Of a stretch of DNA of 64,000 nucleotides, positions 3,231-41,868 are shown in pieces. Both the position numbers and the translations under genes were made by a program. Source of the DNA: an uncultured Clostridium sp. (GTDB taxonomy: Bacteria > Bacillota > Clostridia > TANB77 > CAG-508); assembly GCA_947064765.1 (NCBI GenBank), contig CAMSWH010000001.1:73-64072 (forward strand). The letters are read 5' to 3'. The notes under the pieces were generated by a model. It saw nothing but the letters and a program-made list of their open reading frames with translations, was not told where the DNA came from and ran no database searches. Position 1 is the first letter of the stretch. The number at the start of each line of letters is the position of its first letter.

Positions 3231-4271
3231 CTAACTGCCAATTTCTTTTAAACAAAAGATTATTATTTCATCATTATATCTTATATTTAACTTTAGATTT
3301 TCTATATTAGTACTATCTTCTATAAAAAAGTTTGCTATTATTTTATCATTTTTTAATTTTGAATCTTCATTAATATTATAAATTTTTCCATTAACATCTT
3401 GTAAATATATATTCTCTTTATTGATATTAATTTTTTCAATATATTTTTCTTTAAATTTTATATTAATATTTAAAATATAATTTTTATAACTTACTTCGCA
3501 ATTTTCAATAGAATCTTTACTGTCTATATAATAATTTATTTCTTCTTGATTAAAAATAATATTATTATCCGTTTTTGTATTTAAGTCCCAAATTCCAGAA
3601 ATATAACTATCTTTATCGTCGTTTATCAATTGAATTTCACTTATAATTATTTTAAAATCCTTACAATTATAGAATTCATTTTGTATTTTAGATAATTTTC
3701 CTAATACTATTGCATTTTTTTTATATAATAATTTTGTTTGTGATTGGAAAAAAACATCTTGAAACATATCCATATTAGAATAAATAACATTATTTTTATC
3801 ATCAAATATTTCAAAATCATATAATATTATCTCGTCAAATTCCTCTTCTGCAACTACATCAAAAGCAATATACATATAATAATCATCCAAATAAAAATAA
3901 TCTGCCTTAATTTTTATACCATTACTTTCTACATAATCCATATCTATATTTTGAACATATCCATTATCAACAGCATACTCAATATTTGCACCTTGACCAT
4001 AAAAAATCTTAGTTAAAATATCTTTCCATTCTCCTGCAAAAGCACAACTTGATAAAACTAAACAACAAATAAATACAGCTGCAATCTTCTGAGCAAATAT
4101 ATATGTTTTATTTCTTTTAGGAACATATTTAATAACTTCATTTTCGGAACGAGTATTTCTAGCTTCTATAATTTTTCTAATTTTCTCTTTTCCTTCTTCA
4201 CTCATCTCCATTTTGCTTCTTTTTTCTTTAATCTTTTTTATTTCTTCCTCAAAATCTTGCATTATATTCAC
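3231..4271 (-). CDS. Putative membrane-anchored anti-sigma factor
   Basis: It overlaps the upstream ECF sigma gene by 23 nt. It has a charged N-terminal region, one TM helix (IAAVFICCLVLSSCAFA) and a large extracytoplasmic domain. Confidence 0.45.
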   Translation of the reverse strand: MNIMQDFEEEIKKIKEKRSKMEMSEEGKEKIRKIIEARNTRSENEVIKYVPKRNKTYIFAQKIAAVFICCLVLSSCAFAGEWKDILTKIFYGQGANIEYAVDNGYVQNIDMDYVESNGIKIKADYFYLDDYYMYIAFDVVAEEEFDEIILYDFEIFDDKNNVIYSNMDMFQDVFFQSQTKLLYKKNAIVLGKLSKIQNEFYNCKDFKIIISEIQLINDDKDSYISGIWDLNTKTDNNIIFNQEEINYYIDSKDSIENCEVSYKNYILNINIKFKEKYIEKININKENIYLQDVNGKIYNINEDSKLKNDKIIANFFIEDSTNIENLKLNIRYNDEIIIFCLKEIGS

Positions 4272-6247: not shown

Positions 6248-6817
6248 TTATCTATAACTTGCTACTGTACATTTACCACTTTCATTGTTAAAAGTTGCTC
6301 CTAATCTTTGACCTGTTTTATCTACCCATGTATAACTAAGAGAATTTTTTGATATACTTGTTAATATTCCTTCACCACCAATTTTTTGTACAAATTCTTC
6401 ATAAGTGAATGAACCATTATTTAAATCTTTTTGCAAATCGCTTGATGATGGTAATGTTATATTGTCATTTTTTATGCTTTCTTTATCAATTGTTGCTTGA
6501 ATCGTAATATCATCATTTCCATAAGATTTGAAACTTATCCAATTCTTAGAATCAAACTTCCAAATTGGATCACTTCCAATCATAGCATCTGTGGTAGATT
6601 CAAAGCCTATAATAGCATTAATTTCTTCCACAGTATTTGTTGCTTCAATATGTTGCATAGCTTCTACTATATCATAATTTCCTTTCACTTCTTCCTGTTC
6701 ATTATTAGTATTTCCTACATTTGAACTATTTTTTTCTCCTAGTGCAATATATCCTAATATTCCTAATGCAATAATGAACAAAATGCAAATTGCACTAATA
6801 ACTTTCTTATTTTTCAT
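6248..6817 (-). CDS. Membrane-anchored or secreted hypothetical protein
   Basis: AGGAGG lies 7 nt before MKNKKVISAICILFIIALGILGYIAL (signal/anchor), followed by a soluble domain. Confidence 0.5.
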   Translation of the reverse strand: MKNKKVISAICILFIIALGILGYIALGEKNSSNVGNTNNEQEEVKGNYDIVEAMQHIEATNTVEEINAIIGFESTTDAMIGSDPIWKFDSKNWISFKSYGNDDITIQATIDKESIKNDNITLPSSSDLQKDLNNGSFTYEEFVQKIGGEGILTSISKNSLSYTWVDKTGQRLGATFNNESGKCTVASYR

Positions 6818-6853
6818 GTTTATTCCTCCTACCATTTTTATTTTCAATCATTT

Positions 6854-7282
6854 CTATTGTTCTTGTTTGTTTGTCTTCATTTTAGACATATACATAGATG
6901 ACAACATTAGCATTCCGAAAGTTCCAAACAAAAAGACAAAATAAACAATAGCAACAGGTGAAGTAGATTTTATTCCCTCTACATTTGCATATAGCCTATC
7001 ATTAGCAAGTAATGCTTTTACACTTTTACCTTCATAATATCCAGAAAGTCCATGAACATTTTGCAATTCATATTCTTTTCCATTATATTCTACTTTAACT
7101 TCATAAAATGTTGTTCTATTTTTTGTTTTTTTATTTACAACTTCTTTCGTGGAAGTATTAATAACAGTTGCTGTAACTTCTTCATAATTTACTTCAGTTT
7201 TATTCATTAAAAACCAAAAAACAATCGTTAAAATTAAACAAATTACAGTAAGAATCCACATAAGTGCAACTTTACTTTTCAT
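6854..7282 (-). CDS. Small membrane protein (DUF3592-like topology)
   Basis: An N-terminal TM helix, a beta-rich middle and a C-terminal TM helix. Confidence 0.4.
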   Translation of the reverse strand: MKSKVALMWILTVICLILTIVFWFLMNKTEVNYEEVTATVINTSTKEVVNKKTKNRTTFYEVKVEYNGKEYELQNVHGLSGYYEGKSVKALLANDRLYANVEGIKSTSPVAIVYFVFLFGTFGMLMLSSMYMSKMKTNKQEQ

Positions 7283-7580
7283 ACTTTTCCACCTCCATTT
7301 CCTATAAAATTATATTACTTTTATTTATATTTTTCAACATAGAATTGTAATTTGTTTATTTAAAATTATAAATTTCCTTCTGCAAGTTTGCTAAAAGTCT
7401 ACATGCATGAGCTCCATACATTTGAGTGTGATGATATTGAAATGAAATTGTAGATAATATTTCAAAAATTTTTTCTTAAAGTAAATAGGAAGTAAATAAA
7501 TTGGTATTGTGAAATTGATGATATAAAAATAACAATCAATTCATATAGTTACACAATTATAACAGTACATTTAGTTTAAC

Positions 7581-7645
7581 AAATTAGAAGTATATTTTTA
7601 GATGTAGATTCAATTATTTACATCTAAAAATATACTTCTAATTTA
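7581..7645. terminator. Long perfect hairpin (stem about 24-25 bp) between convergently ending genes
   Basis: AATTAGAAGTATATTTTTAGATGTA, a 14-nt loop, then TACATCTAAAAATATACTTCTAATT, overlapping the stop codon of the 7643-8362 gene. Confidence 0.5.
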
Positions 7646-8362
7646 TCTAATTAACTTTTTTATATACTGATCTGTATTTTTCCTAAAATAACCACAATGA
7701 CCTAACGAATCAACTTTGATAAATTCACTACTTTTATATTTTTTAATTCTAGGTAAGCAAAGTCTTGCTATATCTTCTGTTCCATATACAAATGTTATTT
7801 TTCTCTGTGAATTAATATCTAATTTAGGAGTTTCAATATTATAACAACTTTCTAATAAATTCTTTAAACTTTCTATTGTTACCATTGGTGCTACATATTG
7901 TTGGACTTCTCCCATTCCATTAAAACATTTATTTAATTCTTTGACTGCATTTTCTGGATGCTCTTTTATATTAAGCAAACATCTTTTATATCTATTATAA
8001 AAACATTTTTTTATAATATTGGGGAATTTAAAGATAGGAGCACTATCTACAATTACTTGTCCTATTTTATCTTGATTATGACAAAAATAATGAAAAGCAA
8101 TATTACCACCTAAAGAAAATCCTATAATTGCTTTTAATCTATCAATGTTATTCTCTTTTAGAAATTCATCAATATTTCTTTCTTCATCTTCCATTGACAT
8201 ATAGTTTGAATTTTTATAATGTCCACTATATGTTGGAATAATTAAATAATACTTATCACTTAGTCTATCTATTACGAAATTAAAAAAATTAGCACTTGTA
8301 AACATAGGGTGTAGCAACAGTATTTTTTCATTTTCTTTATTTCCATAGGTAACTATTTTCAA
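7643..8362 (-). CDS. Alpha/beta hydrolase (esterase/lipase-like) with a TTG start
   Basis: GFSLGG nucleophile elbow (GXSXG); 239 aa. The shared intergenic motif lies upstream. Confidence 0.65.
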   Translation of the reverse strand: MKIVTYGNKENEKILLLHPMFTSANFFNFVIDRLSDKYYLIIPTYSGHYKNSNYMSMEDEERNIDEFLKENNIDRLKAIIGFSLGGNIAFHYFCHNQDKIGQVIVDSAPIFKFPNIIKKCFYNRYKRCLLNIKEHPENAVKELNKCFNGMGEVQQYVAPMVTIESLKNLLESCYNIETPKLDINSQRKITFVYGTEDIARLCLPRIKKYKSSEFIKVDSLGHCGYFRKNTDQYIKKLIR

Positions 8363-8396
8363 ATAAATCTACTCCTCTCTAAATTGTAACTCTTAG

Positions 8397-8588
8397 TTAT
8401 ATCTTACTGAAAATTACTGTCTTTTCTTTCATTGATATTTTACCAAGTTCATACCCATATTTTTTAGCTTCTTTTTTGTAAGTTAAAAATGAATGGGCTA
8501 TATCGAATCCTAAAATATTTTTGACTTCTTCATAAGATAATTTATAATTTTCTTTTAAATACTTCCATAAAGGCTCATATTTACTCAT
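8397..8588 (-). CDS. Small hypothetical protein (63 aa)
   Basis: MSKYEPLWKYLKENYK... is preceded by TAGGAG and the shared upstream motif. Confidence 0.4.
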   Translation of the reverse strand: MSKYEPLWKYLKENYKLSYEEVKNILGFDIAHSFLTYKKEAKKYGYELGKISMKEKTVIFSKI

Positions 8589-8621
8589 TATTAAACACAC
8601 TCCTAAATTGTAATTTATATT

Positions 8622-9161
8622 TTAGTTTTGTATTTCATTAATAATATTTTCTAAACTAGAAAAATCAACAAAATTAACTTTTTGATTATAAGTATCTATC
8701 ATTGCTTTAACTTCTGCTGTTTTCTTTTCTTCTGGTAGTCCTTTTGCTTTTTTATAAAGCAGGCTCATCATTGTTTTATGAGCAAAGTTTAATTTTGAAT
8801 AATCTATTCCTCCTCTTAAATGATAAATATATGCTTTTTTATATATTTCATTTGAAAGTTGTCTTTTCATACCATTTTCTATATTATTTGTGTTTTCTAC
8901 ATCCATAGGATCTGCTAATCCAACTGTTGCAATTATTATTTTCTTACTTTCACAATTAGATATTTTTTTGAAAGTTTTAGTCATTCCTAAAACTCCTCCA
9001 GCATACAATGCTCCTATATATATAATTGTTTCATATTCATCAATATTTTTTATCTCTTCAAAACTCTCTGCTTTTATATTAATTTTTTTTGATAATTCCT
9101 CTGCATATTGTTTTGCAGTGCCATAATGAGAGCCATATATTATTATTTTCATAAGTTTCAT
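8622..9161 (-). CDS. Flavodoxin-like protein
   Basis: MKIIIYGSHYGTAKQYAEEL..., an N-terminal flavodoxin fold signature. Confidence 0.6.
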   Translation of the reverse strand: MKLMKIIIYGSHYGTAKQYAEELSKKINIKAESFEEIKNIDEYETIIYIGALYAGGVLGMTKTFKKISNCESKKIIIATVGLADPMDVENTNNIENGMKRQLSNEIYKKAYIYHLRGGIDYSKLNFAHKTMMSLLYKKAKGLPEEKKTAEVKAMIDTYNQKVNFVDFSSLENIINEIQN

Positions 9162-9252
9162 CTCACTTTCAAATTACTATCTTGTGTTTCGATTATATCA
9201 TAAAGGACAAGTAATTATCAACTTAATTACCTGTCCTATTTATTGTAATTTC

Positions 9253-9729
9253 TTACTCTAATTCTTTTTTATGATTTAAGTGTATTCCTATATGTCCTAT
9301 TCCTAATATTATTGTTGATATGATAAGAAATATATTTTTACCATATATACCTAATAATAGAAATGCAACTACTGGCAAAGTTGCTCCTGCAACTGGTATG
9401 TTTAATAAACTACTGTACATATCTTTCATTGTTTTATTGCTTTTAAAATATCTAATCCAATATATTTCATATAAAATCATTAGAATAAAAGCAATTAACA
9501 ATATAATAGTCCAATTAGATATTTTGTTTATATTAAAATCATTAAATATTAATGATATACAAGTTACTAGCATTTCTCCTATTCTTTCAAATATTAGTAA
9601 TACTTTATTTTCATTTTTTACATATTTTTCATAGTCTTTAGGTTGATTTTTATTCCATATAATATTATGTATCATTAACATTAACAAAAATATAAAACCT
9701 ATATATGAAAATCCAAAGTGAATATCCAT
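9253..9729 (-). CDS. Integral membrane protein, hypothetical
   Basis: Four to five predicted TM helices. Confidence 0.45.
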   Translation of the reverse strand: MDIHFGFSYIGFIFLLMLMIHNIIWNKNQPKDYEKYVKNENKVLLIFERIGEMLVTCISLIFNDFNINKISNWTIILLIAFILMILYEIYWIRYFKSNKTMKDMYSSLLNIPVAGATLPVVAFLLLGIYGKNIFLIISTIILGIGHIGIHLNHKKELE

Positions 9730-9744
9730 TATTTTATCTCTCTT

Positions 9745-10620
9745 TCAAATTGTAATTTGTTGACTACTTTGCATTTTATTTTTCATCTTTTTATAAATTA
9801 AACATATAATCATAAATGAAATTATTTGTGCTATTAAAATCCTAACTATTTGCAATTCATCTGCCCCTGTATTAGATACTATATGAAGCATATTTGTAGC
9901 AATAATATTATTAAATAAATGATCTCCTATACCAATAAATAAACTACCTGTCATTTTATACAACATACCCCATTTAATACTCATAATTCCTGCGAGTAGA
10001 ATATAACCTAATATCATTACAATTAAATAAATAAGATTCATCTCTCCATTTATAAATAATCTTAGTGGCATTACAAAATGCCATAGTCCAAATAATAAAG
10101 CAACTATTATATTTGATTTTAAAAAATTATTTTTACTATTTATAACTTTTAAGAAAAAACCTCTAAATAATCCTTCTTCCATAATAACATTAACAATATT
10201 TAGTAGAATACATAAAATAAAAAACACAATTTTAGTATGTTTGACTTCATTTCCAACTAAAGAAAACCCATTAACATAAAGTTGAAAACTAGGGTTTCTC
10301 GAATTTGCATAAAGCGTTATATATTCTATAAAATATGATATTCCAAAACAAATCCCCCCTAATATCAATCCATAAATTAAATATTTAAAGAATTTATTTT
10401 TTTCAAAGCCAATATCTTTAAACTTATAATTCATTATTTTTAGTAAAAATAATAATATGATAATCCCTATCATTTTGTGAATAAAATTTTCAGATATAAA
10501 AGTTGTATCAGTCTTTATTATAAAGTATTCCACAATTCTTATTACTAAACATATCATAAATATTATAAAACTATATAGAATAGGTTTATTTAGTATGTGT
10601 TCTTTTAATCTTCCTTTCAT
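9745..10620 (-). CDS. CPBP-family (CAAX/Abi) intramembrane metalloprotease
   Basis: The EEGLFRGFF motif and FGLWHF motif are characteristic of the CPBP family; polytopic membrane protein. Confidence 0.7.
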   Translation of the reverse strand: MKGRLKEHILNKPILYSFIIFMICLVIRIVEYFIIKTDTTFISENFIHKMIGIIILLFLLKIMNYKFKDIGFEKNKFFKYLIYGLILGGICFGISYFIEYITLYANSRNPSFQLYVNGFSLVGNEVKHTKIVFFILCILLNIVNVIMEEGLFRGFFLKVINSKNNFLKSNIIVALLFGLWHFVMPLRLFINGEMNLIYLIVMILGYILLAGIMSIKWGMLYKMTGSLFIGIGDHLFNNIIATNMLHIVSNTGADELQIVRILIAQIISFMIICLIYKKMKNKMQSSQQITI

Positions 10621-10649
10621 TTCTTACCTCACTTTTAAATTGTAATTTT

Positions 10650-11249
10650 TTATTCAAAATAGTATGTTTCATTTTTATTATTTTGAATTGTAGCATTCGT
10701 AGGTACTTCTCTTAAAATATTAAATATATTATAAATATCAGGATAAACACCTACCATTCCCATTATTGCCATTCCAAACAATATTCCATTTAATTCTTTT
10801 AAACTATTGCTACTAAAACAGAATATAACTAACGGGATCAAACCTAAAATAATTGGTAATATGCTTAAAAATATAAAACGATTCCTTTTTACTGGACTTG
10901 AAGATAATGCAACTGCTGTTAAACTTTTAGGCATTATACCTATATATACTGTTGCATTTTTAGGGAAAGCGATAGCATGTAATAATTCGTGAACAATTAT
11001 TAAGAAAAATCCTATAATTACTCCTATAAATAGAAAACTTACATTTATTATTTTTTCATTTGCAATAAATGTTTTTGCAAACATACATATAAAGCAACTA
11101 AAAACAGATGGTATCATAAAAGGTAGTGCTTTTATTTGCATTTTCTTCATATCTTCTTCAATATCTAATTTTTTAGCATTTTTAGGTATATCAGCAGTAG
11201 GAAAATCATTCTCACTTTTTATTATACCTTTCCATATAATTTTAGGCAT
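10650..11249 (-). CDS. Membrane-embedded putative zincin peptidase (DUF3267-like)
   Basis: HELLHAIAF (HExxH) lies within a polytopic membrane protein. Confidence 0.5.
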   Translation of the reverse strand: MPKIIWKGIIKSENDFPTADIPKNAKKLDIEEDMKKMQIKALPFMIPSVFSCFICMFAKTFIANEKIINVSFLFIGVIIGFFLIIVHELLHAIAFPKNATVYIGIMPKSLTAVALSSSPVKRNRFIFLSILPIILGLIPLVIFCFSSNSLKELNGILFGMAIMGMVGVYPDIYNIFNILREVPTNATIQNNKNETYYFE

Positions 11250-11285
11250 TTCTTCATCTCCTATTATCTCTACTTGTAATTTGAA

Positions 11286-11705
11286 TTACTCTATATCAAA
11301 ACTTTCTGTCTTTAAATCACAATAATATCTACCGCTTGTAGTAGTAAATTTTAAAACACAATAATCTGGATCAGTTACACCTTTTTTATAAAACATTGTA
11401 TCGCCTTTTTTCCAAATTATATTTTTGGTTTCTTGGTCTGTTAATACTTCCATATTTCCTTTTAACATAACACCAACATATTTAATTAGTCCTTTATGAT
11501 AAAAGTATATACTAGCATTAGAATTATTTTGATATTGCTTTACTCTCATAGATGAAGTATTAGTAGAAAAATAAAACTCTTTTAAACCATTTCGTTTTCT
11601 AGGTTTCAGCATTGCTTTAATATTAGGATAATTTTCATTATCAATAGAACTTATAAAACTAACTTTTTGCTTATCAATAAATTTTTCTATTTTCTTTAAA
11701 TCCAT
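11286..11705 (-). CDS. Pyridoxamine 5'-phosphate oxidase-like FMN-binding protein
   Basis: 139 aa with a PNPOx-like split-barrel pattern. It is the first gene of the seven-gene array. Confidence 0.45.
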   Translation of the reverse strand: MDLKKIEKFIDKQKVSFISSIDNENYPNIKAMLKPRKRNGLKEFYFSTNTSSMRVKQYQNNSNASIYFYHKGLIKYVGVMLKGNMEVLTDQETKNIIWKKGDTMFYKKGVTDPDYCVLKFTTTSGRYYCDLKTESFDIE

Positions 11706-11865
11706 AAAACTTCATCTCACTTTCAAATTACTATTTGTCTAACAAATAGATAATATCATATAATTATTTATTCATCAATTAAAGAAATCTATTTAATACT
11801 TATTATGCGCAGATAATTTTGAATAAAAATAAAAACCACTGAAATTGGTTAAATTTCAATGGTTT

Positions 11866-11953
11866 TGGTGCAGATGGCCGGAATCGAACCGGCACGGTTT
11901 ATTCAACCGCAGGATTTTAAGTCCTGTGCGTCTGCCAGTTCCGCCACATCTGC
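11866..11953 (-). tRNA. tRNA-Leu (anticodon TAA)
   Basis: The reverse complement folds as a cloverleaf with a 7-bp acceptor stem (GCAGATG/CATCTGC), anticodon loop CTTAAAA, a long variable arm, T-loop GGTTCGATTCC and an encoded CCA. An AACCACTGAAATT/AATTTCAATGGTT terminator hairpin lies just downstream (11831-11866). Confidence 0.85.
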
Positions 11954-12257
11954 ATTTTTACTGGCAAGTCAGTTTTCAACTGACAAGAGTTATTATACTA
12001 TCTAAAATTTCATATGTCAATAATTTTTTTGAAAAAAATTTAAAAATGTGTAAAAGCATTGTAAATTCTTCAGTTTATATTAATTCAAAACAATTCTACT
12101 AACAATAGCACCGAAAACAAAAAAACTAAACCTCAAAACATATACCAACAATAGGGTATGCATTTCCTCATTTATATAATTATTAATGATTATTAGCAAC
12201 TCTTAACGAAGCCTTTATTTAATAGAAAAATTCTTTACTTTTTTCTATTAAATAAAA

Positions 12258-33281: not shown

Positions 33282-35969
33282 TTATTTTTTTAAGCTTTCC
33301 AATCTTTCTTCTACATTGATAAGCATTTGTTTATAATTTTCAAGTTTTGCTTTTTCCTCATTAACTTTTGCTTCTGGTGCTTTATTTACAAAACCTGGAT
33401 TTGATAGCATCTTCTCTCCTCTTGTAACTTCTGCTTCCAATTTTGTTTTTTCGTCTTGTAATCTTTTTATTTCCTCTTCAATATCAACTAATTCTTCAAA
33501 TGGTATAAAAACTTTTAAATCATCTACAACTATTGAAACTGCATTTTTAGGAACTTCCTCTTCAGCTTTTATAATAACTATTTCATTTGCAAATCCTAAT
33601 TTTAATAAAAATTCTTCTGCTTCTTTTATTTCATTTTCTATTGCATTTGACATTATTAATAATTTTGATTTTTTAGATGGATGAACATTCATTTTTGTTC
33701 TAATATTTCTAATTTCAACAATTACTCTTTTTAATTTCTCTATAGTATCTTCTTCTTTATCAAAAACAAATCTTTCTCTTATATCTGGCCATTTTGCTAC
33801 CATTAAATCAGGTGTTCCAAAATAAATTAAATTTGAATATATTTCTGATGTAACAAATGGCATAAATGGATGTAATAATTTTAATGAAGAAGCAAATACA
33901 TGATTTAGTACATCTGTTACAGCTACTTTTGTGTTCTCATCTTCACTATAAATTCTTGGTTTTACCATTTCTATATACCAATCACAAAACTCATTCCAAA
34001 TAAAACTATATATTTTGTCAAGTGCAATTCCTAAATCATAATTATCAAGATTTTTACTAACATCTACTACTAATTTATCAAGTTTATTTAAAATCCATTT
34101 ATCTTCAATTCTCAATAATTCTGGATTATAAGCTTTTTCTTTTTCAAAAACTTCATAGCAAAATTCTCTTACTTTTTCTTCATCTGCTGAATTCATTGTA
34201 ATAAATTTAGCCGCATTCCATATTTTATTTGCAAAATTTGATGCTTGCTCTAACTTTTCAGGCATAAATCTAATATCATTTCCCATTGTTGTACCTGAAA
34301 GTAATGAAAATCTTAAACTATCTGCTCCATATTTATCTATAATTTCTAGTGGATCTATACCATTTCCTAAAGTTTTAGACATCTTTCTTCCTTGACTATC
34401 TCTAACTATTCCATGTATTAAAATATCTTTAAATGGTACTTCTCCTGTAAATTCTAGGCCTTGTGTCATCATTCTTGAAATCCAGAAAGTTATAATATCA
34501 AATCCTGTTACTAAAGTTTGTGTTGGATAGAATTCTTTATAATCTTCTGATTCTGTATTTGGCCAACCTAGTGTAGAAAATGGCCATAATGCAGAACTAA
34601 ACCAAGTATCTAAAGTATCTGGATCTTGAACTAAATTTGTACTTCCACATTTTTCACATTTTTCTGGTAGCTTTTTAGCTACAGTAATATGATTACATTC
34701 TTTGCAAGTATATGCTGGTATTCTATGTCCCCACCATAATTGACGAGAAATACACCAATCTTGTATATTATCTAACCAATGAAAATATTGTTTTTCATAT
34801 CTTTGAGGAACAAACTTTGCTTCTCCATTTCTTACACTATCTGCTGCTCTTTTAGCTAAATCTTTCATACTTACAAACCATTGCTCTGAGATTTTGGGTT
34901 CTATAGTATTTTTACATCTTTCGCATTTTGCTACATTATGTGTATAATCTTCTGTTCTTACTAATGCTCCTATTTCATCTAATCTTTTAACAATTGCTTT
35001 TCTTGCATCTAATAAATCCATACCTGTATATTCTGGTACTAAATTTCCCATTTTAAAGTGTTCATCAAATACTTCAATTATTTCTAAATTATGACGTAAT
35101 CCTGCTTGATAATCATTCATATCATGTGCTGGTGTGATTTTAACACAACCTGTTCCAAATTCCATTTCAACAAATTCATCTGCAATTATTGGTATTTCTT
35201 TATTCATTATTGGAAGTATACAAGTTTTTCCAACTAAATCTTTATATCTTTTATCATCTGGATGAACTGCAACTGCTGTATCTCCAAGCATTGTTTCTGG
35301 TCTTGTTGTTGCTACTTCAATATAATCATTTTCTGTTCCTGTTATTTTATATCTAATATGCCATAAATGTGATGCTTCTTCTTTATATTCAACTTCTGCA
35401 TCTGAAATTGATGTATTACAACTTGTACACCAATTTACCATTCTTTTTCCTTTATATATTAATCCTTTTTCATACAATTTAACAAATTGCTCTAAAACTG
35501 CGTCTGACATTCCTTCATCTAAAGTAAATCTGTTTCTATCCCAATCACAAGAACATCCCAATTTTCTTTGTTGCTCTTGAATAATTCCACCATATTGTTT
35601 AGTCCAATTCCATGCTTCTTCTAAAAACTTATCTCTTCCTAAATCTTTTTTAGATTTTCCTTCTTTTGTAAGTTTTTGTACTACTTTCATTTCTGTTGAA
35701 ATTGATGCATGATCTGTTCCCGGAAGCCATAGTGTTTTAAATCTTCTCATTCTCTTATATCTAATTAAAATATCTTGTATTGCTCCATCAAGTGCATGCC
35801 CCATATGCAATTTTCCTGTTACATTAGGAGGTGGCATCATTATACAATAAGTTTCCCCATTATTTTGTTCTGATGGCTTAAAATATCCTTTTTCTTCCCA
35901 CTCCTTATATAATCTGTCCTCAAAATCTTTTGGATTAAATTTGTCATTTAGTTTTGTTTTTTCACTCAT
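33282..35969 (-). CDS. valS: Valine--tRNA ligase
   Basis: PPPNVTGKLHMGHALD (HIGH region), a KMSKS motif and a C-terminal coiled coil; 895 aa. Confidence 0.95.
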   Translation of the reverse strand: MSEKTKLNDKFNPKDFEDRLYKEWEEKGYFKPSEQNNGETYCIMMPPPNVTGKLHMGHALDGAIQDILIRYKRMRRFKTLWLPGTDHASISTEMKVVQKLTKEGKSKKDLGRDKFLEEAWNWTKQYGGIIQEQQRKLGCSCDWDRNRFTLDEGMSDAVLEQFVKLYEKGLIYKGKRMVNWCTSCNTSISDAEVEYKEEASHLWHIRYKITGTENDYIEVATTRPETMLGDTAVAVHPDDKRYKDLVGKTCILPIMNKEIPIIADEFVEMEFGTGCVKITPAHDMNDYQAGLRHNLEIIEVFDEHFKMGNLVPEYTGMDLLDARKAIVKRLDEIGALVRTEDYTHNVAKCERCKNTIEPKISEQWFVSMKDLAKRAADSVRNGEAKFVPQRYEKQYFHWLDNIQDWCISRQLWWGHRIPAYTCKECNHITVAKKLPEKCEKCGSTNLVQDPDTLDTWFSSALWPFSTLGWPNTESEDYKEFYPTQTLVTGFDIITFWISRMMTQGLEFTGEVPFKDILIHGIVRDSQGRKMSKTLGNGIDPLEIIDKYGADSLRFSLLSGTTMGNDIRFMPEKLEQASNFANKIWNAAKFITMNSADEEKVREFCYEVFEKEKAYNPELLRIEDKWILNKLDKLVVDVSKNLDNYDLGIALDKIYSFIWNEFCDWYIEMVKPRIYSEDENTKVAVTDVLNHVFASSLKLLHPFMPFVTSEIYSNLIYFGTPDLMVAKWPDIRERFVFDKEEDTIEKLKRVIVEIRNIRTKMNVHPSKKSKLLIMSNAIENEIKEAEEFLLKLGFANEIVIIKAEEEVPKNAVSIVVDDLKVFIPFEELVDIEEEIKRLQDEKTKLEAEVTRGEKMLSNPGFVNKAPEAKVNEEKAKLENYKQMLINVEERLESLKK

Positions 35970-36074: not shown

Positions 36075-36320
36075 AAAAAAGCCCTTATACTTACGTATAA
36101 GGGCGAATATTTACCACGGTACCACCTTATTTATCTATTTTAATTAATTAAAATAAACATCTCTTAGATTTTAACGTATCTTACACGAATATACTTAAAG
36201 TTAATTTCAGTATATCAACTCCAAAGCTACCTTCAAACAAACCTTACTATTTAAGAAGCTCTCAGCCTATGACTTCTTTTCTCTTTATAGAGCTTTTGTT
36301 TTACTCCTCTTTTTCATAGT
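36075..36320 (-). promoter_or_regulatory. T-box riboswitch leader of valS (approximate bounds)
   Basis: On the minus strand AAGGTGGTACCGTGG (T-box) is followed by the terminator GCCCTTATACGTAAGTATAAGGGC plus TTTTTT; an AGAGA-containing stem I lies upstream. Confidence 0.8.
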
Positions 36321-36538
36321 TTTTAAATTATATTTAATATATTAACATAATTTTCTAAGTAAATCAAGAGTTATTTTATAATATTTTAACCTCTTTTTGA
36401 TACTAAAAAAAATTATTAGTACCATCAAAACTTTTATTTAATAGAAAATATGTAATATTTCAATTAAATAAGAAAAGAGTGCCAGATAATTCTGACACTC
36501 TCTTCTTATTTTCTCATAAAATTCTTTATCAATATTAT

Positions 36539-40917: not shown

Positions 40918-41868
40918 TTAATTAATTTCTAATACACTATATATATGCTTAACTGTATTTTCTAAAACTTCCATTGGATAGAAAATTAATTTATAATATT
41001 TTCTTATAAGTTTTTCATCTAACCCATTTCTAAATGTAGGTGGTTCAAATAATTGACCACATCTGTATCTGAAATATAAACAATCATCAACAATTTTAAC
41101 TTCAAAAAAATAGCCACTTATATTTATTATATCTATATACTTTTCAATTAAATCTGCTGTAAAAATTTGCATAGCTGTTACTTTATCTTGTGTATAAAGA
41201 TCATAGTACTTTTCAAATTCTGCCGAATCAACTTCTATTCTATTTTTACTAAATCTTTTAATATTGTTATTACTTGCTATATGTATATCTATTTTACTAT
41301 TCTTATCTAATTTAACAAAACCATACATTCCTCTAAAAGTTTCTGTTCTATTTTCTTTTCTATTTCCATCTGCATCTTTATAAATTTCTACATTATAGCT
41401 TGCAATTTCAGAAGCTTGAATATTACCACCACTTCTTATTTTTCCGTATATTCTATCTTCTGAATAGAATTCATCAAAGCTATTATCAAAATTTGATATT
41501 TTATAATCTACTCTTGATACACCAATTGCTTGATCAAAATTCAAATCTTCATTATACTCTTTTACCAAACTTTCAATAACACATTTTTTATATATAGTTC
41601 TATAATTTTTTCTTGCATTTACTATTAATATAATTAAAATAGCTATTGAAACAGAGATCGTTAGTGTTATCATATATCTTGCCTCTGCTAAAACTATATA
41701 AAGTATCAAATTAATAATTAGCTCAGCTATAAAAACATATAAAATAAATTTATTATTTTTTCTTTTTACTTCATCTAAATGTTCCTTGCTTGTTTTACAT
41801 ACATTTTCATATATTTCTTCAAAACTTTTTTTCATTTTTCTCACTTTTCTTTCATCAATTTTTTTCAT
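40918..41868 (-). CDS. Membrane protein commonly paired with LemA (DUF3137-like)
   Basis: Two N-terminal TM helices plus a soluble domain, immediately downstream of a LemA gene. The terminator hairpin ACAGTAATCTA...TAGATTACTGT follows it. Confidence 0.45.
   Translation of the reverse strand: MKKIDERKVRKMKKSFEEIYENVCKTSKEHLDEVKRKNNKFILYVFIAELIINLILYIVLAEARYMITLTISVSIAILIILIVNARKNYRTIYKKCVIESLVKEYNEDLNFDQAIGVSRVDYKISNFDNSFDEFYSEDRIYGKIRSGGNIQASEIASYNVEIYKDADGNRKENRTETFRGMYGFVKLDKNSKIDIHIASNNNIKRFSKNRIEVDSAEFEKYYDLYTQDKVTAMQIFTADLIEKYIDIINISGYFFEVKIVDDCLYFRYRCGQLFEPPTFRNGLDEKLIRKYYKLIFYPMEVLENTVKHIYSVLEIN

Follow-up and report, generated by a model that had tools for sequence, protein, structure and literature searches.

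The present study concerns a 64,000-nucleotide stretch of DNA from an uncultured Clostridium sp. (contig CAMSWH010000001.1; hereafter the window), with a G+C content of 26%, in which seven consecutive minus-strand genes running from 11705 to 7643 share a short repeated element at their 5' ends. Each start codon in this run is preceded by a 12-nt core, AAAT(TAC/AGT)AATTT, followed by the Shine-Dalgarno (SD)-like sequence GAAAGTGAG, or a variant of it, approximately 8 nt ahead of the start. The genes encode a mixture of enzymes, proteases and membrane proteins (Table 1), and the surroundings of the array encode Spo0A_C, a sortase and a sporulation-type sigma factor, which identify the source as a Firmicute. 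On balance, we lean towards reading this element as the joint at which gene cassettes are linked in a modular system found widely among AT-rich gut Firmicutes.

Within the window the element is specific to the array. The core was sought 5 to 45 nt upstream of start codons, and the seven array genes were compared with the 59 other genes of the window using Fisher's test. Cores with at most one mismatch precede 5/7 array genes and 0/59 others (p = 2.4e-6), and cores with at most two mismatches precede 7/7 and 4/59, respectively (p = 4e-7), bearing out an earlier report, made from the letters alone (the sequence-only reading), of a near-identical element ahead of all seven starts. The exact TAC form of the core, AAATTACAATTT, is present three times in the 64 kb, in each case inside the array. 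The 59 non-array genes, delimited by a simple gene call, have canonical GGAGG-type sites and no comparable upstream sequence, indicating that the motif is not the generic ribosome-binding context of this organism, a possibility that the sequence-only reading had itself raised. A DUF3137 gene outside the array (40918-41835, minus strand) has an SD region, GAAAGAAAAGTGAGAAAA-ATG, that resembles GAAAGTGAG and is not accompanied by a core.

The stop-to-start spacers had been described as uniformly 15-36 nt, which holds for five of the six, the exception, between the membrane and flavodoxin genes, being 100 nt long. This longer spacer contains a core, a hairpin and a promoter-like site, so that the run probably constitutes two transcription units, and the window accordingly carries two cassette strings, of four and three genes, beside a tRNA-Leu gene. 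A consensus scan placed promoter-like sites ahead of both strings, of which the first (P1) would drive the PNPOx, DUF3267, CPBP and membrane genes, and a strong bidirectional hairpin is located at 7589-7636. Three additional core copies have no gene behind them (9251-9240, 7644-7633 and 7353-7342). The proposed overlap of the element with C-terminal codons was confirmed at the membrane-gene joint, where the TGA is the stop codon of the CPBP gene. Beyond the terminator lie the remains of two more cassettes, namely a C-terminal fragment of a DUF3781 protein on the plus strand (7499-7570; NWYCEIDDIK...) and, on the minus strand, approximately the last 40 codons of a chloramphenicol acetyltransferase (CAT)-like gene (7475-7356), the homologue of which in another genome (locus L024) is a PF00302 CAT. 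The CAT-like remnant is followed by the core AAATTACAATTC, the last of the three copies listed above. From this debris, cassettes would seem to turn over and decay where the array ends distally.

Table 1 Features of the array and its immediate flanks, in order of decreasing position (positions are those of the window)
Feature	Position	Strand	Basis or remark
tRNA-Leu(TAA) with own terminator (11866-11832)	11866..11953	-	ARAGORN, Rfam, terminator scan; left chromosomal flank
Promoter-like site P1, TTGATG-17-TATTAT with TG	11750..11778	-	Consensus scan
Perfect palindrome CTATTTGTTAGACAAATAG	11731..11749	-	Between -10 hexamer (11755-11750) and SD
PNPOx leader, AGT type: AAATAGTAATTTGAAAGTGAG-N10-ATG = AAATAGTAATTT + GAAAGTGAG	11716..11736	-	Exact 21-mer
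Cassette 1: PNPOx-like protein, 139 aa	11286..11705	-	Pfam PF01243
DUF3267 joint: degenerate TAC core AAATTACAAGTA, 2 mismatches, then TAGGAG...ATG	11271..11282	-	3 nt past PNPOx stop
Cassette 2: DUF3267 (putative zincin) membrane protein, 199 aa	10650..11249	-	Pfam PF11667
CPBP joint: AAATTACAATTTAAAAGTGAG-N7-ATG = AAATTACAATTT + AAAAGTGAG	10628..10648	-	Exact core
Cassette 3: CPBP/Rce1-like intramembrane protease, 291 aa	9745..10620	-	Pfam PF02517
Membrane-gene joint: AAATTACAATTTGAAAGAGAG-N8-ATG = AAATTACAATTT + GAAAGAGAG	9738..9758	-	Includes CPBP stop TGA (QQITI-stop)
Cassette 4: membrane protein, 158 aa	9253..9729	-	No Pfam family
Non-coding module: terminal TAC core 9251-9240, hairpin 9237-9204, promoter-like site P2 9221-9192, AGT leader	9162..9251	-	
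Flavodoxin leader, AGT type: AGATAGTAATTTGAAAGTGAG	9162..9182	-	
Cassette 5: Flavodoxin_5 protein, start 9152 or possibly 9161	8622..9152	-	Pfam PF12724
63-aa gene joint: AAATTACAATTTAGGAGTGTG = AAATTACAATTT + AGGAGTGTG	8596..8616	-	Exact core
Cassette 6: 63-aa protein	8397..8588	-	No Pfam family
Hydrolase joint: GAGTTACAATTTAGAGAGGAG...TTG; degenerate core GAGTTACAATTT + AGAGAGGAG	8372..8392	-	
Cassette 7: alpha/beta hydrolase, 239 aa, TTG start	7643..8362	-	Pfam PF00561
Terminal module: core-like left half AAATTAGA... over stop codon, 64-nt hairpin ending in complementary ...TCTAATTT	7581..7644	-	
Debris of two further cassettes, beyond terminator	7342..7570	both	blastn against L064, L081 and L024; translations

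A scan of one genome per species (185,579 species) with the query AAATWRYAATTTRAAAGNGAG matched at least 120 loci, and the supposition that the element is confined to the window's array did not hold, as it is present in more than 100 other species. The matching loci were fetched as 8-kb pieces (designated by the prefix L) with mechanical calls of open reading frames (ORFs), and nearly all of the genomes concerned are metagenome-assembled genomes (MAGs). Hosts of the matches listed are nearly all AT-rich gut MAGs, labelled as uncultured Bacilli, Clostridium, Clostridia, Tenericutes or Mycoplasma, obtained from humans, mice, rabbits, chickens and ruminants, and circular long-read assemblies are among them. 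Complete circular MAGs with the motif include OZ006970.1, OZ007038.1, OZ007016.1 and OZ006978.1. The matches listed include 134 exact 21-mers, 75 in the AGT form and 38 in the TAC form, and the 21-mer of the window's PNPOx leader has identical copies in dozens of other genomes. The distance between the end of GAG and the start codon is 6-10 nt in 117/130 of the matches listed, and the genes behind the motif belong to at least 64 unrelated protein clusters. A Pfam census of 115 core-preceded proteins returned 106 families, with GNAT acetyltransferases (8), alpha/beta hydrolases (4) and CPBP proteases in the lead; beta-lactamase-like, VanZ and NUDIX proteins were also represented, as were many DUFs. 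Single cassettes that could be identified encode CAT, SUFU, TfoX_N, Imm11 and a 494-aa ABC ATPase with two ABC domains. A gene for a housekeeping-type GTPase, recognised by eye as YlqF/RbgA-like from its N-terminus, stands behind a TAC core in L062 (reverse strand, ~5526) and in L016 (reverse strand, ~1199-2400), where a 58-aa cassette that has an AGT leader directly precedes it, and cassettes may therefore also reside inside ordinary operons.

The 848 kb of fetched sequence contain 137 exact TAC and 112 exact AGT cores (99 and 37, respectively, outside the search seed) against 3.2 expected from base composition, compared with four of each in 471 kb of control contigs, likewise from the gut and equally AT-rich, that were picked regardless of the motif. 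At 26% G+C short A/T-rich words are common, and ATTACAATTT with one mismatch is not enriched across the window (43 found versus 49 expected), which could make the pattern a product of chance or of generic ribosome-binding context. We give that explanation next to no credence, the contrast between gene starts within the window, the enrichment of exact cores and the recurrence of the exact 21-mer in more than 100 genomes together ruling it out. A phage or plasmid origin was also rejected, the motif being nearly absent from viral contigs (15 matching stretches among 2.9 million contigs, of which only about five to six appear genuine) and without a match among 72,556 plasmids.

The modular anatomy of the arrays is conspicuous in two long examples of approximately 12 (L097) and 14 (L064) consecutive genes, in which nearly all junctions keep the 12-nt core with 0-1 mismatch, the SD half differing between cassettes, so that the constant part is the core and not the SD. 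The two core forms are also polar with respect to genes. Exact TAC cores (n = 121) stand after the end of an ORF in 98 cases and before an ORF in 62, with 46 following a gene and having none behind them, whereas exact AGT cores (AAATAGTAATTT; n = 89) stand after an ORF end in only 19 cases and before an ORF in 73, with 57 having no ORF ahead of them. A -10-like hexamer is found within 40 nt of 51/70 AGT cores versus 13/37 TAC cores. Many of the 46 TAC cores without a following gene are succeeded by an intrinsic terminator, and in 12/46 an AGT core follows 13-18 nt further on. From this polarity the single unit can be read as promoter, AGT core, SD, ORF, TAC core and terminator, and an array likewise starts with a promoter and AGT core, continues with cassettes that are each followed by a TAC core, and closes with a terminator. 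A role of the cores as internal promoters, with TACAAT serving as the -10 hexamer, was rejected, as the consensus scan of the window revealed no excess of promoter-like sites and, within the array, only the two AGT leaders have good promoters upstream.

The AGT and TAC cores are reverse complements of each other except for one base, and single units are bracketed in the order AGT, gene, TAC. These properties would also suit 12-14-bp terminal inverted repeats of non-autonomous transposable cassettes moved by a transposase acting in trans, similar to mobile insertion cassettes (MICs). The pairs of TAC and AGT cores 13-18 nt apart could then be adjacent units, and the AT dinucleotides that are frequent at both flanks of the cores would also fit. 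We nevertheless regard transposition of this type as rather improbable, since internal array joints carry one core rather than two, none of the core-flanked ORFs of at least 230 aa in the 8-kb loci resembles a transposase by eye, the cores showed no clear target-site duplication, and the promoter and terminator lie outside the repeats, leaving a transposed unit usually silent. A DNA-inversion switch between the AGT and TAC forms was rejected on the basis of the listed leaders, without a dedicated search, as only 4/134 of them are of the TGT type, in which the TAC core is exactly reverse-complemented; the TGT leader of locus L119, examined in detail, lies behind a promoter, as AGT leaders do.

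An alternative that we judge unlikely, yet well worth weighing, is that core and SD together form a cis-acting expression signal, strictly conserved on account of its function, the shuffling of genes being a by-product of short-homology recombination between identical leaders. Such a signal could be an A/U-rich unstructured standby site or enhancer joined to an interrupted SD that permits host-independent translation, a device for re-initiation after the preceding stop codon, or the site of an RNA-binding regulator. The distance to the start codon is fixed; the segment from core position 8 through the SD is conserved to the same degree as codon positions 1 and 2, and above third positions; the AGT variant has stops in two frames, and in all three when ATGA follows GAG; GAAAG-T-GAG-A-TGA would, allowing for one bulge, resemble a complete complement of the 16S 3' tail; and the absence of a recombinase among our findings (see below) also speaks for expression. 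Against it, 46/121 exact TAC cores follow a gene and precede none, being succeeded by a terminator or promoter module instead, the long arrays keep the core while the SD half varies freely, and the 59 other genes of the host manage on ordinary GGAGG sites. Nor is there a structural signature at the junctions, the minimum free energy of the region from -35 to +20 not differing between array starts and other genes (p = 0.39). The hairpins that were found belong to the terminator and promoter modules and not to the joints, and Rfam identified only the tRNA at gathering score, with nothing else credible at E <= 10 in 7200-12100. Elsewhere in the window, Rfam identified an ordinary T-box leader unrelated to the array (RF00230, 104 bits; 36096-36326, minus strand) upstream of an 895-aa gene (33282-35969).

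The palindrome reported by the sequence-only reading is real, although it lies downstream of the -10 hexamer and not upstream of the promoter as had been stated. It overlaps a conserved TTGTTAGAY element and, with its right arm, the first 6 nt of the core. Two copies of the same module, TGATATTAT-N-TTGTTAGAY-core, are present in L119, where the palindrome is imperfect, and the symmetry is thus not conserved. The palindrome or the TTGTTAGAY element could, together with the core, be the operator of a DNA-binding regulator, for example an Xre-type helix-turn-helix (HTH) protein, that co-regulates the accessory genes. Consistent with an operator, the window copy is a perfect palindrome and AGT cores lie 2-34 nt, mostly 9-21 nt, downstream of a -10-like hexamer, a typical operator position. 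HTH_3 proteins of the Xre type, approximately 170-200 aa in length, are encoded in at least 22 of ~120 motif-bearing loci, often as the last gene of the array and with their own promoter (L097:5608-6123; L064:6115-6675 and 6773-7204; L028:1221-1826; L119:1789-2325; and others), and they have an apparent C-terminal membrane segment, as read from the sequences rather than predicted. We consider an operator very unlikely as a general explanation, because no such regulator lies beside the window's array, the palindrome is not conserved in homologous modules, an operator has no obvious use at every internal junction or after the last gene, and Xre genes are common in Firmicutes generally. An operator role is possible for the promoter module only. 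The roles in expression, transposition and regulation are not mutually exclusive with the cassette-joint model.

Comparison of the window's array with the fetched loci by blastn showed that every one of its cassettes recurs with different neighbours, at 82-97% DNA identity, and that the alignments begin and end at cores to within a few bases. The break points can be placed precisely for several cassettes. Homology to PNPOx extends from ~11736 to 11274 (87-91% identity in L042, L057, L064, L076, L081 and L119), and that to DUF3267 from 11282/11273 to 10637/10623 (88% in L027 and L106, where different sequence follows), stopping exactly at the end of the core, 10637, in L106. The membrane gene is matched from core to core, 9760 to 9242, at 97% in L030 and L086 and at 88% in L063, with other genes upstream, and the 63-aa gene is matched over a core-bounded stretch, 8604 to 8382, at 82% in L091. 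A partial match of the hydrolase in L048 (87%) likewise starts at the core. The 82-nt terminator/promoter module between the two strings (9251-9171) recurs on its own in L092 at 85% identity. Independent assortment is also evident across families, 14/17 of the cassette families present in at least three loci having two or more different upstream partners, and 12/15 of the families seen as the upstream gene having two or more different downstream partners. The earlier suspicion that this is not ordinary operon architecture is upheld by cassettes recurring with other neighbours and by homology ending at the cores, and the same reassortment and break points back the suggested cassette-by-cassette assembly.

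The position of the breaks within the core was resolved by comparing seven PNPOx cassettes and calculating mean pairwise identity by segment. Identity is at the random level in the upstream context (0.38), complete at core positions 1-4 (1.00), low at positions 5-7 (0.42) and high from position 8 through the SD (0.95), falling to 0.77 in the spacer to the start codon, compared with 0.78 at third codon positions. Core positions 5-7 follow the upstream context, being AGT, AAT or TGT behind promoters and TAC behind genes. Past the PNPOx stop codon, 7/7 share N3-5 and AAATTAC(A) before proceeding into seven different continuations, and homology to the other cassettes ends at 11274-11275 of the window, which confines any exchange point to approximately core positions 8-12.

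Locus L119 provides a natural counterpart to the window, as its gene for glycyl-tRNA synthetase (GlyRS) is 96.7% identical to that of the window and it has one cassette, PNPOx, instead of seven. The order there is a homologous promoter module, PNPOx, a core and, directly after it, the counterpart of the 64-nt terminator hairpin, which the window has only behind cassette 7. The PNPOx unit of L119 is inverted relative to GlyRS, and ahead of it L119:940-1010 matches 11817-11880 of the window, comprising the last ~13 nt of the tRNA-Leu and its terminator; ARAGORN found no tRNA in the L119 locus. The tRNA remnant looks like an integration or inversion scar at a tRNA, or possibly reflects a MAG assembly problem.

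No dedicated recombinase gene was found with the window's array. Membership in the integron family, which the sequence-only reading had considered, is not supported, given the lack of an attC-like hairpin, of a GTTRRRY core and of an integrase among the precomputed Pfam hits for genes within ~9 kb of the array on each side (seven genes there having no hit), and no recombinase domain was found in 10 further window ORFs of suitable size. No recurrent recombinase cluster was found across the ~120 loci, and no XerD-family recombinase was seen at the array heads of the window, L081, L028 and L119. The sole recombinase adjacent to arrays is a large serine recombinase (Recombinase and Zn_ribbon_recom domains) located directly upstream in two loci, L064 and L015, whose homology (87%) extends from the recombinase through a 450-nt non-coding stretch and ends at an AGT core. 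In this stretch (L015:5012-5470; L064:1140-1599) TTGTAATAC occurs as four direct repeats, spaced by 54, 30 and 66 nt, which may be binding sites; four clustered copies were found only in these two loci. A metagenome scan recovered 43 loci with relatives of this recombinase, 35 of which have readable downstream sequence (63-91% identity), and the enzyme was rejected as the cassette integrase because these 35 relatives have no adjoining array, one of the relatives (L158) having cores ~6.6 kb away. The recombinase gene or its remnant is always preceded by a conserved small ORF without a Pfam family, of 90 aa in L015 and L125 (L015:2848-3120; L125, reverse strand, 3305-3577) and 54 aa in L042 (reverse strand, 1975-2139). 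In L015 and L125 the pair adjoins tRNA genes: the L015 array lies downstream of a tRNA gene with the recombinase element between them, and L125 has a single AGT leader downstream of a tRNA gene. From this placement the serine recombinase and small ORF are more likely a separate integrative element beside tRNA genes. An autonomous element with the same ends as the cassettes was also sought among core-flanked ORFs, and none was found.

Under the cassette-joint interpretation, a cassette begins with the right part of a core and its own SD (AATTT-GAAAGTGAG, then ~8 nt and the start codon) and is closed ~3 nt past its stop codon by AAATTAC[A], the left half of the core that follows. Cassettes are arranged head to tail behind a promoter module ending in a variant core, AAATAGTA, with a core and terminator after the last of them, and would be co-transcribed from the promoter modules, each probably being translated from its own SD. 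Gain, loss and reordering would proceed via recombination inside the 12-bp core, probably around positions 8-9. We infer that the agent is either a trans-acting site-specific recombinase or short-homology recombination after DNA uptake; the recombinase-free route would be homology-facilitated or short-homology recombination channelled by 12-30 identical bases. Under site-specific exchange a circular cassette would have the joint stop-N3-AAATTACA/ATTTGAAAG...start of the same cassette (the slash standing for the exchange point). The distinct promoter-end site, the hybrid-looking joints and the site after the last cassette form the pattern expected if circular cassettes were inserted conservatively at a docking site, a logic equal to that of attI x attC recombination in integrons. 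Taking this one step further, we tentatively propose a gene-capture system functionally parallel to integrons, with AAATTACA/ATTT joints, a docking site AAATAGTA/ATTT behind the promoter, and a recombinase in trans or a short-homology route that moves cassettes within and between species.

Several observations weigh against cassette joints as sites of exchange. No recombinase was identified for the cores: there is no serine-recombinase homologue anywhere in the window, inspection by eye of the first 50 residues of core-flanked ORFs of at least 230 aa in the 8-kb loci revealed no transposase or recombinase, and a core or array immediately follows the recombinase gene in 0/35 of the serine-recombinase relatives. 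The dyad arms of the core are only 5 bp, short for a classical recombination site, and the fixed position of the core beside the SD, together with conservation of GAAAGTGAG, fits a role in expression equally well. Within the window's own strain or species, no contig showed gain or loss of cassettes, all contigs with the exact CPBP or hydrolase protein having the same context, and no record of the exact window PNPOx protein was found. Metagenomes that contain the strain include ERZ13692151, ERZ13692152, SRR34957004, SRR34957009 and SRR27190634. Reliance on MAGs and on 8-kb loci is a further weakness, since the loci were selected by the motif itself and class frequencies are biased as a result. 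Three independent short-read contigs from the window's strain (L187, L190 and L193) have the hydrolase at the same position, 316-1035, and L190 and L193 terminate at that very position, 89 nt upstream of the 63-aa gene, so that the repeated joints may be points where assemblies break.

Cassette arrays with repeated joints are a known kind of genetic organisation, and there is a substantial chance that the present arrays represent a capture system new in its own right. In integrons, attC sites are imperfect inverted repeats of 57-141 nt with R'', L'', L' and R' boxes and a GTTRRRY core, and they stand after each cassette. The arrays described here likewise comprise compact, mostly promoterless single-ORF cassettes, co-oriented behind a common promoter and assorting independently between genomes, with a distinct attI-like site at the promoter end (the AGT core), a repeated site after every cassette including the last, and a cargo rich in GNAT acetyltransferases, resistance-type genes and unknowns. 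Many of them have no recombinase nearby, as is the case for clusters of attC sites lacking integron-integrases (CALINs). They differ from integrons in that no IntI-type tyrosine recombinase was found, the joints are only 12-21 nt long with the single core AAATTACAATTT, without a hairpin or GTTRRRY core, and the SD is part of the conserved joint. To our knowledge, integrons are rare in AT-rich Firmicutes, the hosts of the present arrays.

Other systems share particular features with these arrays. The pdif modules of Acinetobacter plasmids are genes bounded by short 28-bp sites that move between replicons without a recombinase of their own, host Xer proteins being thought to act in trans on XerC/XerD-type 11-6-11 sites in alternating orientation. 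Discrete modules, short bounding sites and modules devoid of a recombinase gene dedicated to them are common to both, whereas the core described here is chromosomal and has no 11-6-11 organisation. PeSL elements in the hyperplastic regions of T4-type phages are ~50-60 bp long, consist of a promoter and stem-loop, flank small novel ORFs and are thought to mediate shuffling; they resemble the present joints as short repeats flanking ORFs with modular shuffling between them, and differ from them in that the joints lie in chromosomes, measure only 12-21 nt, in most cases lack a promoter and are hardly ever found on viral contigs. MIC231 and similar cassettes have the full terminal repeats of a known insertion sequence (IS231) and target duplications. 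MICs are named in PMC6199540. As Firmicutes elements of the Bacillus cereus group they too carry passenger genes without a transposase between short bracketing inverted repeats, whereas the present cores have no known cognate insertion sequence and stand singly in array joints.

No prior description of the joints was found among open-access papers and bioRxiv, the nearest being rAID-1 of gut Bacteroidales. It is described as arrays of up to 31 small genes with signs of horizontal acquisition, repetitive intergenic sequences called reminiscent of integrons, and an XerD-family recombinase conserved at the array head (Ross et al. 2019, 10.1101/471110). By that description the two systems have in common their presence in gut bacteria, the repetitive intergenic sequences between many small acquired genes and, in part, their cargo, since some cassettes here are of immunity type (Imm11, SUFU and CPBP). 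They differ, going by the same description, in phylum, in the XerD-family head recombinase, which was not found here, and in that enzymes and membrane proteins, not immunity genes against type VI secretion systems, make up most of the cargo here.

Were the element an expression signal after all, a 21-nt leader exactly conserved before more than 60 families in more than 100 species would be an unusually portable one that deserves tests of its use as a tool and as a target of regulation. If, as the cassette-joint interpretation holds, the cores are exchange points, they would provide gut bacteria with a second integron-like route to stockpile and trade accessory genes, operating where integrons are rare, in uncultured lineages that dominate many gut metagenomes. 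Its cargo includes families linked to resistance (CAT, the two-domain ABC ATPase, beta-lactamase-like, VanZ and GNAT proteins) and to bacteriocin or toxin immunity (CPBP, Imm11 and SUFU), which makes the 21-nt signature a simple handle for mining a mobile gene pool that would escape current finders of integrons and insertion sequences.

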